Assembly: GCA_964016885.1 (NCBI GenBank) | Contig: OZ024740.1 | Location: 129,642,001-129,706,000, forward strand | Direction of reading: 5' to 3' | DNA length: 64,000 nt | From: Eledone cirrhosa | Taxonomy: Eukaryota | In this document: positions 37,779 through 55,632 of the stretch, one piece after another | Position numbering within the stretch: position 1 is the first letter of the stretch | How the letters are laid out: each line of letters begins with the position of its first letter | The notes under the pieces: generated by a model | Databases searched by the model: none | Seen by the model: only the letters and a program-made list of their open reading frames with translations | What the model was told of the DNA's origin: nothing | Made by a program: the position numbers and the translations under genes

Positions 37779-38317
37779 CTCCGTGCTAGGTTTCACATAG
37801 ACTACTCTGACCAACAGTTTTATTCAAAAGAGTATGATGAATATGGTTCTGTCATCATTTTTGACTATTCGTCACTTTAGTTAACTTTTAACCAATTGCA
37901 GCATATTGAACTTGGAAACCGTTTAATTCTAGAGGATTGTTGTTAGCTAAATCCGCACCACACGTGATTATACACATATATGCAAACGTCCACCCCCACA
38001 CACACGCACACTAACACAAACATCCACACACACACACACACACATACACACACACACACACACATATATATATATATATATATATATATATATATATATA
38101 TATATATATATATATATATATACATATATATATATATACATATATGTATATATATATATATATATATACATATATATATATATACATATATATATATATA
38201 TGTATATATATATATATATATACATATATATATATATATATATATATATATATATATATATATATAAAATATTAAACAAATAATGAATAAACAATTCCTT
38301 ATATTAAACAAAAAAAG

Positions 38318-38472
38318 TTCATTATTTAACGATCGTTTCTAGGGTATATATGTGTTATAATTGGTATGCATATTCAACAGATCTATGTACAAAATTATAC
38401 AAAATTATACAAATTATCAAGATTAAATATACATACCTAACACATATATACGCCGTCTTCAGAAATAATGAA
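38318..38472 (-). ncRNA. Type I hammerhead (inverted pLTR copy)
   Basis: Reverse complement of 46261-46415. Confidence 0.8.
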
Positions 38473-41400
38473 GTATATTTATTGATAATAACAACAATTC
38501 AAAATATCAGTTCAAAATTGACCAATGAAAACACAAAGGGTTAAAAGCAGTTCGGTGTGTGTATATACATGTAAAATCCTTACACATATTTTACAAAAAT
38601 GTGTGTATAATTTGTATACGCATACTAAAAAGATGGATGCAAACACACAATTTCAAGGTTAATATCTCTGTAAGCTTAATGCGCTGATAAGATGCGCATT
38701 GATACTTATGGAGTCAAGCATATAAATATATTTTTTCATACTCACACATATCAGTATAATCACACATACATGCGCGTATATGCATAAATATACACATAAC
38801 CACGAACATACAAACACACACACTCCCCCACTCACTTTTATATATGTGGATATAAAATCATAAGCACATAGAAATTAAATCACTCACATAAAACACTGGC
38901 ACACACATTTCAAGATCAAGATACAGAAATTAGGTGGGAGGGGGGGGAGGGGTCAGTATTCAATTGTCTGAGCAGACTGCCTAATATAAATGTATCTATA
39001 AATTAAGAAAAATAAAAAAATAAAACAATAAAATATAATAACTATAATATAATATATATACACATACAGATATATAAACACACATACATACATGTACGCA
39101 CACATAGAGATATTTACGCATACACACATACACACATACATATACAGTCATACACACACATACACTTACACGAACATACACATACACATATAAAAAGATA
39201 TATATATACACACACACACACGCGCAACACATACACACATACACATATATATAAAAAAAAATAGATAATAAAGATATATATCCATACACATATATATACA
39301 CACACACATATATATATATATATACACATATATATATATATATATATATACATATATATACACACATACATACACATACATCTAAATATACATACACATA
39401 CATACACACATACATGTACATACTTGTACATACATATACGCACATCGATATACATATATATATATATATACATATATATATATATATATACACTCACATA
39501 GACATATAGATACATACACACACAACTTACATACACACGTATATATATATATATATATATATAGATGTACCTTCATACATAGAATTAGATATATAATCAT
39601 ACATACATATGCACCTACTTATACTCATATATATAAAAATACATACGCTTCCATAAATGTGTATATACATAAAAAACAATACAACCTCACCAAACTCAGA
39701 CATACAAATAAAGATAATAATAAAAAATAATAATAAAAATGCATATGTATATACATACACACACGCATTAATAGAGATATATATATATATACACACATAC
39801 ATACACATATATATATATACATACACACACATATATACACACACACATATATATATATATATATATATATATATATATACACACACATAGACTCATACAT
39901 ATATATATATATATATATATATATATAAACATATATATCCACACACACATACCACCATAAAAACACATACAAACACCCACATGTATATATATATATATAA
40001 ATATATCCATATACACACACGTACATATATATACATATATATACATATATATATATATATACACACACATAAAAAACAGACATGCACATATATATATATA
40101 TATATATTTTATTACTCTTATATATACACATATTATATATACATACACAACCTCACTTATACACATATACACATAAGTTATATTATAATAATAAAGAATA
40201 ATATACATATACATATATACATATACATATATATATATATATATATATACACACATACATACACATACATACATACACATAAATATATACATACATAAAT
40301 ACACACATACGAATAAAGACATATATTCACACATAGACACCTATATATATATATATATATATATATCTATATATATATATACATATATATATATATATAT
40401 ATATATACACACATACACACACACACACACACACAGACACACATACACACTCACATATATATATATATATATATGTGTATGTGTGTGTGCGCACATACAC
40501 ATATATACACACACACATACAAACACACACAAACACATACATATGCATACGTGCACACACACACACATATATCACATAGATACGAAGATAAACATATAAA
40601 TAGAGAGACATACATATATATACACAACACACATACACATACATACATACACGCATATACATATACATACATATATACACATATATATATTCATATATAT
40701 ACAAGCATACACATACATACACATATATACACATACATACACATATACATATAACACATTCACATACACACACATATATAATGCATATATATACATATAT
40801 ATACATACATATGTATGTACAATCATATATACACACACAATCTTACATTCATATTTGCATGCTCATATATGTATTTTTATATTTAGATATAAATACCCAA
40901 ACCTATATAGACACCTACCTACATATATATTCATACATAGACGCTTACAAATACAGATGATAATAGTATGGGGGAAAGGGGGGGTTTGGAGAAGGGGATC
41001 AAAGTAAATATATGTTTCAAGAAACATATAATATTTTCCGTATCTTAATTCAATGTATGTTCTTACATATTTTCAGTGCTAGGAAATACGAAATCTATGC
41101 ATCTCAAAATAAATAAGTATACCATTAATCATATGTTAACTAAACCAAAGATAGTCAACATATTGATTTATAAGGTGTAAATTAGTTAGGTTTATAATAT
41201 TTGAAGCAGAATTTTGAAGTCAAACAGTAGTAGATTATTAATTACAGTATAACTAAATTAAAGTTAATAACGTTATGGTATCAATATTAGGAGATGAATT
41301 TAGTAATAGGGAAAAGAAACCCAAATAAAAATAAAATAAAGTATTACATCGGTAGTAGCATATAAATTATATGTTAACTAAATTAAAAATTATATATTTA

Positions 41401-52290: not shown

Positions 52291-52868
52291 ATATTATAGT
52301 TATTATATTTTATTGTTTTATTTTTTTATTTTTCTTAATTTATAGATACATTTATATTAGGCAGTCTGCTCAGACAATTGAATACTGACCCCTCCCCCCC
52401 CTCCCACCTAATTTCTGTATCTTGATCTTGAAATGTGTGTGCCAGTGTTTTATGTGAGTGATTTAATTTCTATGTGCTTATGATTTTATATCCACATATA
52501 TAAAAGTGAGTGGGGGAGTGTGTGTGTTTGTATGTTCGTGGTTATGTGTATATTTATGCATATACGCGCATGTATGTGTGATTATACTGATATGTGTGAG
52601 TATGAAAAAATATATTTATATGCTTGACTCCATAAGTATCAATGCGCATCTTATCAGCGCATTAAGCTTACAGAGATATTAACCTTGAAATTGTGTGTTT
52701 GCATCCATCTTTTTAGTATGCGTATACAAATTATACACACATTTTTGTAAAATATGTGTAAGGATTTTACATGTATATACACACACCGAACTGCTTTTAA
52801 CCCTTTGTGTTTTCATTGGTCAATTTTGAACTGATATTTTGAATTGTTGTTATTATCAATAAATATAC

Positions 52869-53023
52869 TTCATTATTTCTGAAGACGGCGTATATATGTG
52901 TTAGGTATGTATATTTAATCTTGATAATTTGTATAATTTTGTATAATTTTGTACATAGATCTGTTGAATATGCATACCAATTATAACACATATATACCCT
53001 AGAAACGATCGTTAAATAATGAA
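52869..53023 (+). ncRNA. Type I hammerhead in the downstream pLTR
   Basis: Copy of 46261-46415. Confidence 0.8.
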
Positions 53024-55632
53024 CTTTTTTTGTTTAATATAAGGAATTGTTTATTCATTATTTGTTTAATATTTTATCTTGACTCTGTATACCGTTTATC
53101 TTTCACCGAAAGTGGATTTTCATTACATCTCTTCTTTCCATGATATCCGGAATACATTGAGTTCTTCATACGGATTGGACACTACCGTAAACTCTTGGTA
53201 GATTTATCTACATATATATATATATATATATATATATATATATATATATATATATATATGTATATATATGTGTGTATAAATATATATATATATGTGTGCG
53301 TACATACGTATTTGTGTGCGTTTGATGTTCACGTAGTGATAAACATTTGAAAGTTTGTGCAGATATTAATGAATCCTTAAAAATCCTAACATAGCTGGTA
53401 ATGACAATGTTTGTTTAAACTCATTTATCTTATCGGATTCAGCATGTCACAATATGTGCTAATTCACACACACATACACACATACACACATGCACACACA
53501 CACATGCACACACACACACACACACACACACACAAACACACACACACTCACATACACCAAAAAAATATCTATCTATCTATCTATAAATATATATATATAA
53601 ACACATATAGGCTCATACATTCACATTTCGTGTCTGTGAATTGGAATGAAAATATCTTTGAGACAGCTGCATTACAGGAATTTATTCTAAATACCTTAGG
53701 TGACTTAGGTGACTCATAGCTGATAATGTCGCACACGATTCTTACATGAAATTTAGTATCTCTGTAGATCTAACGTATACCGATTTTATAATTCTTTTGA
53801 TTTAAGATCCCACTCCTATCTGTGGTGGGATATCTTTGACATAGCTATGACGGTTTCATATCTGTATCTAACGACCATGTCGTTGAGGAAGGGACTCTAC
53901 CTCCAGGTCGATGCCAGGCCACATGCATACACCCATCCTCCCCATTTAGCTATCAAGTTGGTTAGAATGTAACTTCATAAATTATAGGAGATTGCTTAAT
54001 CTACTTTTGCTGTTGGAGATTGTGTTTTCTGATCTATATGTCTGCTTTAGGTTCTTTCGACAAAACAATTACAAGACAACTGGCGCTCTGGATGTTGGTT
54101 TACCCAGTGTCATGAGTGTGTATCAATTCATTGATTTGTACTTGGCAATATTAAAGCTGAAAATATTTTAGGTTTTGGAGCACATTAAACGTGATCCATT
54201 TCATACACCCTCGTTCCTCCGTGTTATGGAAGACATATTTATTTTGTTAGCGTGCCTCATTGTTAATTCAGCTTGTTATCTTGTCGACTTGGCTACTGCT
54301 GTTGCTGTGTTTGCAATATTTATCTATCCATTAGCATGAGTGTATTGTTTGGGATTCGGTTAATTAGAGTTTGGGTGGGGCAGGATTAGCGATGCATAGT
54401 GTTCCCTGTCTTTCGGTTGGGTATGGGTATTAGAGGTCAATAGACCACTACAACTGAAACAAGAAGAATGACACCATCAGTGATAGCCAAATCCACTCCA
54501 GTGGCGGCAAATTTAACAGCATCATCAACTACTATATCAAATGCAACAACAGTATCAGTGCCAATACTCCCACCTGTGTAGAGGATGACGGTCGGCATTT
54601 GCGACACATTCTGTTTAACTCTAAGTTACAAGTTTGGGTCGATGACAACCAGAGTAAGAAACCAATGACAACATCTACAACAAATATCCAATTCGGGGAA
54701 GCAGACATACAATAAACTTCTCTTTTTCTATAACGCCAAACATAACCGATATTATAGCGGCTATCAATAAGACATCTTTTTATCTGACACAAGGAGTGAA
54801 AATAACGACAATCAATAACAAGAATATTATAGAGCACAAATTGTAGCCATAGCACTAAAGAAAACATCAGACCTCACGGAACAGTAAATACAAGCCCTAT
54901 CCGACAACAGCAATGAACTTTCATACTTACGCCAATATAAAATCATACACCTATTTATGCACGTTAAACGTATTTAATTCCATTTATTATACTGTTAGGG
55001 AATATCTGAAGATGATATATAATACTTTATATTTTATTAAAGTAGGGCTTTGTTTGCTTCTGAAAACCCAGTCGTAAAACATTGCTAATAATCTTATGTC
55101 AAAACTTTATAGTAAAACATTTGTAAGATTTCTCATGCGTCTAAGAATATGTATTGAAACATGTGTTCATTTGTTTAGCTTCGTTATAATACGTAAATTC
55201 AATCAATGCAAGGCGTAGTGGAAAAAATTAAAGGAAGCGTTTACAAGATATAGTTAAGGATTTAGTTCCAAATATAACACAATTATATGAAATATCAAAC
55301 ATATTGTTCTCATATAAACATATGCAACATATAAATCTGAATTTGCTTGTTTCCTTCTTACAGGAATGTTTATCAAAGTATACATCTCCACAGCGACACC
55401 AAATGCATACACACGCACACACACATAGAGACACATATGTATAGATAGATACTATGTATATACCTACATACATATACATATATATATATATATACATATA
55501 TCCAAAATTAAGTTAAATGTTGTCATGTCTGAGAGACATGCGCCATATCCACTGTAGAATAAGCTCAAAGATTCCAATGAATAGATTCGAGCATTTCATA
55601 TCAACTAGAAATAGATTGATATATATATATAT

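Follow-up and report, generated by a model that had tools for sequence, protein, structure and literature searches.

How a single retrotransposon insertion comes to hold, besides its full coding unit, a truncated tandem copy and an inverted copy of that unit, both kilobases long, is the question raised by a 15-kb insertion in the genome of Eledone cirrhosa (assembly GCA_964016885.1, contig OZ024740.1, positions 129,642,001 to 129,706,000 of the forward strand). Coordinates below refer to this window of 64,000 nucleotides, the whole stretch of DNA that was analysed. The insertion lies at 38264-53214 inside (TA)n; it is preceded by a (CA)n tract and the left target microsatellite (AT)n (38064-38263), with a single-copy left flank, and followed by the right target microsatellite (AT)n (53215-53293).

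The insertion comprises three copies. Arm A (38264-43353, reverse strand) is an inverted and 5'-truncated copy covering unit positions 1381-6471, with a tail-less outer end and the 3' half of the ORF (linker, endonuclease and end of the RT; 42140-43353, reverse strand). At its head-to-head junction with copy B, the two share a 4-nt microhomology, TTAG (43350-43353). Copy B (43350-46606, forward strand, 3,257 bp, unit positions 3353-6608) is the 5'-truncated upstream tandem copy that is termed pLTR in Penelope-like elements (PLEs) (PMC2377424, PMC8557442), and it continues into C (46607-53214, forward strand), one full unit of 6,608 bp and 26% G+C with a tail-bearing outer end. By self-BLAST and pairwise alignment, 43350-46606 is a direct copy of 49959-53214 (3,260 columns, 99.6%), 38264-41381 is inverted relative to 43350-46469 (3,124 columns, 99.5%, spacer of about 2 kb) and 38264-43353 is inverted relative to 47987-53077 (5,095 columns, 99.7%), all far above chance level, and the period between direct copies is 6,608 bp. 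Arm A stops 137 nt before the right-hand end of the unit, at the position equal to 53077, and thus its outer end is missing the 137-nt tail (53078-53214, forward strand) that closes C. These data bear out the original prediction of a young PLE with an intact ORF, a period of about 6.6 kb and near-identical inverted arms; the anatomy that it had placed at 38264..53213 holds except for the right end, which runs to 53214.

The ORF of unit C (46759-49200, forward strand) extends without a break from the ATG at 46759 to the stop at 49200 and encodes 813 aa; it is followed by a 3' UTR of 4,014 nt (49201-53214, forward strand) which includes a 1.8-kb degenerate TA/TG microsatellite (50496-52326, forward strand, 86% purine-pyrimidine alternation). 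The protein carries RWR at residue 37, DKT at 115, YRDD at 346, CxCx5C at 673, YIG at 707, CxxC at 771 and CxH at 799. A Pfam search with the ORF gave no match; its AlphaFold model has a pLDDT of 83, and the best six Foldseek matches of this model are all telomerase RTs (E 1e-9). The C-terminal GIY-YIG endonuclease is recognized by IVY..YIG, R718, H722 and the E and N motifs, with Y694, Y707, G709, R718 and H722 invariant among 35 aligned proteins. G.KF and G.KY motifs are absent from the ORF, and the lone CxxC sits past YIG. The two Cys between IVY and YIG vary across the alignment, so that the ORF has no CCHH motif.

A single telomerase-related RT ORF, a C-terminal GIY-YIG domain, a pLTR, an inverted 5'-truncated copy and a one-sided tail are among the features of endonuclease-bearing (EN+) PLEs, which also include a retained spliceosomal intron, here only a candidate. 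Judged by sequence motifs, the element shares with the Hydra clade (Hydra-1_Obim, Penelope-1_NV; PMC8557442) the RWR/RWK-type motif, DKT, CxCx5C, CxxC and CxH around E and N, the lack of CCHH, a canonical 3' hammerhead motif and the (TA)n target. By eye it matches the Hydra rows of Fig. S7 of that paper block for block, and Hydra-1_Obim appears to be a different family; one listed Hydra member also carries an inverted 5'-truncated copy (PMC8557442). On these motifs and the by-eye match, the element is almost certainly an intact Hydra-type Penelope-like retrotransposon. Naiad and Chlamys, which have an N-terminal endonuclease and no canonical hammerhead, were discarded, since the element has a C-terminal endonuclease and a hammerhead motif; Neptune, Nematis and Penelope-Poseidon were likewise discarded, as the ORF has neither CCHH nor DKG nor the CX2-5CxxC linker of Neptune and Nematis.

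The unit itself is unusual in its size and in its 137-nt tail. Full units of the family measure 6.4-6.8 kb (n=20), over twice any of the 27 listed Hydra families (1.1-3.0 kb; PMC8557442) and outside the description of the clade as generally <3 kb, which is descriptive and not defining. Relative to the listed Hydra members, the 4-kb 3' UTR with its 1.8-kb microsatellite and a 100-aa N/T/K-rich insert in the ORF linker (residues 478-576) are particular to this family, and hammerhead stem II spans 114 nt here vs a few to about 25 nt in Hydra (PMC8557442). In the D. virilis Penelope, which belongs to a different clade, the tail is 30-40 nt long (PMC2377424).

A type I hammerhead motif was located by pattern and fold in C (52869-53023) and B (46261-46415), both on the forward strand, and the copy in arm A (38318-38472, reverse strand) is identical to that of the full unit. 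It consists of a 10-bp stem I, a CUGAAGA core, the 114-nt stem II, GAAA and a palindromic stem III, and its sequence predicts a cut after GUU. The core is unchanged in 130/130 and 133/133 copies. Rfam returned no hammerhead match, only microsatellite-driven miRNA/snoRNA noise under the gathering scores; the stems hold no two-sided compensatory changes, and pairing is lost in 4 of the 14 variable pairs. Two further hairpins with a putative role in priming are predicted near the end positions, both on the forward strand. Hairpin 1, with a UU-bulged CUC/GAG stem, lies in the tail (46473-46555 in B, 53081-53163 in C) and begins 3 nt past the tail-less end position; hairpin 2 (46612-46729), with the same stem type, begins 5 nt past the tail-bearing end position, in the leader of the next unit, and 29/39 tail-bearing arms extend into the ORF. 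Hairpin 2 forms when folded alone and is absent in longer folds, and the fold of the tail is not clearly better than those of shuffled sequences (z -1.8, 11/200). The 152-nt leader also contains a candidate GT-AG intron of 75 nt (46649-46723, forward strand), suggested by sequence, which includes all four upstream ATGs; a leader intron of 75 nt is described for the D. virilis Penelope (PMC2377424), whereas here it is only a candidate. As hairpin 2 overlaps the 3' splice site of this candidate intron, only unspliced RNA could be the template if both features are real.

Taken alone, the present locus is an unremarkable instance of a layout already known, and the family data tell more. Across 52 loci (five contigs among the matches, four small ones and one from the junction search, were excluded) 43 inversion junctions were found, and 9/52 loci are one-armed. 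The tandem plus inverted layout is thus the norm for the family as well as textbook for PLEs, and form C of the D. virilis Penelope has the same full copy, 5'-truncated tandem copy and inverted copy of variable size (PMC2377424). All outer ends run into (TA)n (93/93). In 39 of the 40 two-armed insertions that could be resolved (three more junctions fell at assembly gaps) one arm ends at about 6471 of the unit, tail-less, and the other at about 6608, tail-bearing; the remaining one ends at 6424 and 6608, and none has two alike ends (p ~2e-12 vs free choice). Opposite ends of this kind also occur in two insertions kept out of this count, one at b363.4 and the other an older, outer one at b203.4. 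The tail is often one-sided in the D. virilis Penelope and in the PLE layout generally (PMC2377424, PMC8557442), whereas here this is strict. No paper counting opposite end types per insertion was found in the literature searched, mostly open-access papers with little of the older Penelope work.

In contrast to the fixed ends, lengths vary widely. The pLTR of 28 other tandem arms (excluding b409.7, a merged value) measures 143-6,359 bp, and 11 exceed that of the present locus; arms extend up to three units, and arrays of 3-4 units are present in the family. The longer arm is not tied to end type (19/39). The shorter arm reaches at least 5 kb in 15/40 insertions and the total at least 14.9 kb in 11/40, in a sample biased to long copies, vs 1/16 insertions as large as the present one in a less biased set; the present insertion is therefore large but not an outlier. 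The unusual scale claimed at the outset applies then to the unit and not to arms or insertion, since kilobase arms are common in the family. Truncation points showed no evident pile-up at any one site, nor at the hammerhead cut among the 43 junctions. Three tail-bearing arms end after 120-141 nt, close to the second start site, where a collision would be expected to stop them; this observation has little weight because short arms are common. Microhomology at the junctions averages 2.3 nt vs 0.87 for random joins (15/21 measurable junctions), with filler in 6.

With the anatomy, the TA targets, the pair of fixed ends (each occurring once in an insertion) and the sharing of alleles within insertions as observations, we regard priming from both DNA ends as likely; the whole explanation, in which both cut DNA ends prime RT on one element RNA at two fixed starts, is reasonably probable. 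The GIY-YIG domain would cut both strands of (TA)n, and at each of two start sites, 137 nt apart, 2-3 nt of TA would pair to the primer, while two RT active sites may load at the two similar bulged hairpins a few nt beyond the start sites. Of the two cDNAs, the right-hand one would span one unit plus 3.26 kb, 9.9 kb in all, and the left-hand one 5.1 kb, and repair would join their truncated ends at the 4-nt microhomology in a head-to-head arrangement. On this both-end priming reading, pLTR and arm lengths are merely stopping points, and the 3.25-kb pLTR, initially described as a distinct structure, becomes one copying stop within a wide range. A precedent is found in PAc, a Poseidon element of Anolis, for which in vitro work shows cleavage and extension of both strands, with initiation at two internal sites bounding the tail, and whose template is likewise read beyond the pLTR-ORF junction (PMC11167929). 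The start sites lie within the ORF in PAc and upstream of the ORF here, and the passages of PMC11167929 available to us do not report that each start site is matched to a different end of the same insertion.

The form of the template is less certain. A template continuous across the unit boundary makes copying beyond one unit possible, and a hammerhead-cut, ligated 6.6-kb circle would be the most likely such template, at about even chances; a linear multimer or a template jump would be the other options. A circular template for PLE tandems was proposed in 2014 by Cervera and de la Peña (PMC4209133), in which a hammerhead cut and ligation likewise precede reverse transcription over more than a unit length (PMC4209133, PMC7229834). 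Animal retrozyme circles were shown for non-coding RNAs of 170-400 nt (PMC7229834), whereas the putative circle here would be a coding element of 6.6 kb, deduced only from DNA copies.

Allele distribution bears on the template as well: units of an insertion share private alleles, which together with the opposite ends favours priming from both DNA ends on a single template. The nearest relative of 109/110 copies is a copy at their own locus, with distances of 0.064% within a locus, 0.36% to the nearest other locus and 1.6% as family median. Of the private alleles, 165 occur in every unit of their locus, 60 are singletons and 8 (in 7 loci) are partly shared. Strand asymmetry is seen in the inherited private alleles (p=0.0006) and not in the singletons (p=0.63; n=60 changes), as expected for errors passed through RT and not for gene conversion. 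Such sharing is equally expected whether one RNA molecule or two transcripts from a single source locus were copied, and it could be increased by polishing of the assembly or by conversion.

The best surviving alternative keeps both-end priming and replaces the circle by a linear, uncut read-through multimer, or by RT jumps between sister RNAs; we consider it possible, at a tentative level. At the present locus no difference separates A from C in 3,009 unique positions, whereas 4 differences were counted in B across about 1,300, and one derived base occurs in A and C and is missing from B and 120 other copies, so that a linear two-unit template fits this locus better than a circle. Across the family, the 8 partly shared alleles do not fit a pure circle, arrays of 3-4 units are possible sources, and the Anolis PLE, with uncut RNA as its main substrate, still inserts in vitro when the hammerhead is mutated (PMC11167929). 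However, mutations are no more frequent in inner than in outer units across loci (23/73,393 vs 29/75,881), and tandem neighbours are 0.070% apart vs 0.060% for opposite arms. Moreover, pure linear inheritance only shortens arrays, and the old unit differences and the truncation pile-up at start sites that it predicts are not evident. Rank-matched similarity of units across arms, expected from a linear multimer, was sought and is absent family-wide; the inner unit is the odd one in 15/58, with outer-unit events multiply counted, whereas the mutation counts given above for inner and outer units are de-duplicated.

An outcome suggested from the start for the inverted arms is silencing of the family through kilobase dsRNA that undergoes editing or dicing; we regard this as unlikely. 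The 5.1 kb inverted at 99.7% would pair if transcription crossed the junction, and antisense small RNAs to Penelope have been reported in rotifers (PMC3846280). Yet the head-to-head arrangement would make element promoters read away from the junction, with only host read-through spanning both arms, and the family is highly active, very young and abundant, with ORF starts intact in 37/43 and at least 126 near-identical ORF matches. Among the 165 inherited private changes no A>G excess on the sense strand was significant (33 A>G vs 22 T>C, p=0.28), and these changes show no ADAR imprint.

Fold-back self-priming, put forward in PMC3846280, in which the inverted arm results from a cDNA that folds back and serves as its own template, or from self-priming of an antisense template, is improbable. 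Arm A may be a copy of C at the present locus (no differences in unique sequence), and of b388.9 and b397.2 one forms a perfect palindrome around a single position and the other nearly does. Nevertheless, of the 14 insertions whose arms each consist of one partial unit, 5 have in either arm sequence that is missing from the other; neither arm can then be a DNA copy of the other, and fold-back fails as a general rule even if it may hold for a few loci. It also does not predict the fixed complementary ends or the 2-kb non-palindromic spacer, and the longer or multi-unit arm can be either one.

An assembly artefact (chimeric or fold-back read, or collapsed repeats) would be favoured by near-identical kilobase repeats in microsatellite, by N gaps in 6 fetched loci and by the lack of an empty-site haplotype in the assembly, but it is very improbable given ends that sit on two family-fixed bases, a 301-bp inversion junction with a single full-length match among the 40 matches scored, private changes in each of the three copies, and raw reads and contigs of other samples showing both end types into (TA)n and the tandem junction, which back the family layout and not the present locus.

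Returning to both-end priming, the broader picture, which we hold only as a possibility, is of an autonomous coding retrotransposon that replicates via a ribozyme-made 6.6-kb RNA circle, with two RTs on twin hairpins rolling round the same circle from both DNA ends. If true, a single reaction would account for the tail at one end, for the head-to-head inversion and for new pLTRs of whatever length, and an unspliced-only template would explain the retention of introns in PLEs. As the family is intact, very young and abundant, with single-base starts and countable private alleles, these ideas can be tested from genomes and in vitro.

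Self-comparison shows that the insertion at window positions 38264-53214 contains a unit of 6,608 bp (U) in three copies, and bore out the coordinates of the original prediction to within a few bases. Copy C is a full unit on the forward strand (46607-53214), preceded in tandem by the partial copy B (U3353-6608; 43350-46606, forward strand), and the inverted copy A (U1381-6471; 38264-43353, reverse strand) lies head to head with B, the two arms having four bases (TTAG) in common at the junction. Both outer ends adjoin (AT)n. The unit comprises a leader of 152 nt, an ORF of 813 aa (46759-49200 in C, forward strand) and a 3' UTR of 4,014 nt including 1.8 kb of degenerate TA/TG repeat; between any two of the copies there are 4-7 substitutions and a small number of indels. 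In its layout the insertion matches Penelope form C (PMC2377424) and the general scheme for Penelope-like elements (PLEs; PMC8557442, Fig. 2). Judging from their sequence, the inverted arms could pair as dsRNA over 5.1 kb; however, they point outwards, so that only host read-through would span both, and the A>G excess among inherited changes was not significant (33 vs 22, p=0.28). An assembly artefact is unlikely since the ends lie at family-fixed positions, the A/B junction has a single full-length match among 40 matches scored, A, B and C each carry private changes and the left flank is single-copy.

The 813-aa protein has no match in Pfam, 118 homologues of mostly 31-48% identity and a predicted structure (pLDDT 83) whose closest matches are telomerase reverse transcriptases (RTs). 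It contains RWR, DKT, a CxCx5C linker and C-terminal CxxC and CxH, the set given for the Hydra clade in section 11 of PMC8557442, and lacks, as that clade does, the CCHH motif according to a motif scan and protein alignment. These motifs, together with block-by-block agreement by eye with the Hydra rows in Fig. S7 of that paper, assign the element to the Hydra clade. The family unit measures 6.4-6.8 kb (20 full units), in contrast to 1.1-3.0 kb for the Hydra families listed in PMC8557442; the element is a new, unusually long variant within a known clade, with a layout already known. Over the ORFs of 29 loci, crude dN/dS is 0.15 when calculated from shared changes and 0.39 from single ones, which indicates purifying selection during amplification. 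A, B and C each carry a type I hammerhead motif some 190 nt before the 3' end, predicted to consist of stem I (10 bp), CUGAAGA, stem II (114 nt), GAAA and a palindromic stem III; its core was invariant in 130/130 and 133/133 copies. In two sequencing runs of other samples (X1, X5) the summed depth of the 3'-end region (window 46240-46690) is tens of times that of the ORF, and in a third (X17) some reads skip 84-86 nt within stem II; there are thus probably numerous relatives that are short or non-autonomous and have a reduced stem II.

Other repeats occur in the window. A 318-nt unit with a hammerhead-like core variant (27935-29004; a tandem pair plus one inverted) is retrozyme-like, and a repeat of about 600 nt (29325-30874; tandem and inverted) did not match the hammerhead pattern used; both are flanked by (TA)n runs. 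Positions 1-7650 contain, next to AAT/GAA repeats, two fragments (92-93% alike) left by a disrupted non-LTR retrotransposon with a Pfam RVT_1 match, which we take to be Dong/R4-like. Two fragments in opposite orientation (8358-8916 and 60115-60677; 74% alike) presumably resemble mariner transposase. Further related literature includes bioRxiv 10.64898/2026.07.22.740005, PMC7761336, PMC9977147, PMC12910113 and PMC13282606.

A protein search of the 3.0-Gb genome gave at least 126 matches; the best 40 of 2,117 candidates in the 3'-end search (at 99-100%) and the best 40 of 996 in the 5'-end search were scored. With 51 further loci fetched (26 selected by the 5' end, a choice biased towards tandems, and another 25, on contig C1, by the mid-ORF), the 52 loci comprised 43 inversion junctions from 42 loci, opposite arms in one more and a single arm in nine, and ORF starts were intact in 37/43. 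The upstream partial unit, or pLTR, spans 143-6,359 bp in 28 other arms and exceeds the window copy in 11, so its 3.25 kb is not of the unusual scale first proposed. The 15-kb total is large in a less biased locus set (at least 14.9 kb in just 1/16) but is reached in 11/40 overall (longest 38.8 kb); given the spread of both lengths across loci, the window insertion is large yet ordinary for the family. Elsewhere, the element forms a perfect 5.4-kb head-to-head palindrome without spacer (C1, ~388.85 Mb; L093-L094), truncation at unit position 1000 recurs in three loci, and at L127-L128 and at L078-L080 and L144 a young copy is nested in an older family member, and a pair of complete insertions, each with two arms, lie 160 bp apart.

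Outer ends of insertions fall either at U6608, with the 137-nt tail, or at about U6471, without it. One end of each type was found in 39/40 resolved two-armed insertions, the exception being 6424/6608, and two like ends in 0/40; (TA)n adjoins 93/93 scored outer ends, and reads and contigs of other samples contain the tandem junction as well as ends of either type. PMC8557442 places the tail 'often' at one PLE end, and PMC11167929 describes two RT start sites flanking the tail of an Anolis PLE; no published count of opposite end types per insertion was found in the literature searched, which included few subscription papers. Folding of the downstream sequence predicts a CUC/GAG stem, interrupted by a UU bulge, 3-5 nt past each end position: hairpin 1, past the tail-less end, is well determined, hairpin 2, past the tail-bearing end, is predicted only when its sequence is folded alone, and the fold of the tail as a whole was not significant against shuffles. 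In 14 insertions either arm consists of a single partial unit; in five of these, each arm has sequence missing from the other, therefore both arms must derive from RNA. Junctions show short microhomology (mean 2.3 nt vs 0.87 nt for random joins; 15/21) or filler (6/21).

Across 4.5 kb of non-repetitive unit sequence, divergence was 0.064% within a locus and 0.36% from the closest locus elsewhere, with a family median of 1.6%, and the nearest relative lay at the same locus for 109/110 copies. Private alleles were common to all units of a locus in 165 cases, singletons in 60 and partly shared in 8; tandem neighbours were about as similar as opposite arms, and no mutation excess was seen in inner versus outer units. 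Inherited private alleles were strand-asymmetric (p=0.0006) and singletons were not, which points to RT passage rather than later gene conversion. Three points favour a circular template of hammerhead-cut, ligated unit RNA, as proposed for PLE tandems in PMC4209133: almost every cycle passes through a bottleneck of one unit, truncation points do not pile up, and the predicted hairpin 2 lies across the unit boundary, in the next unit. Against it count the 8 partly shared alleles, the window locus, where A equals C and B differs at four unique sites (one being a derived base in A and C alone), and the Anolis PLE, for which PMC11167929 reports that cleavage is dispensable in vitro. Assembly polishing could also homogenise units, and we regard the case for an RNA circle as evenly balanced. 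The value of these observations lies in a family-wide end rule and allele sharing, seen on an intact autonomous element.
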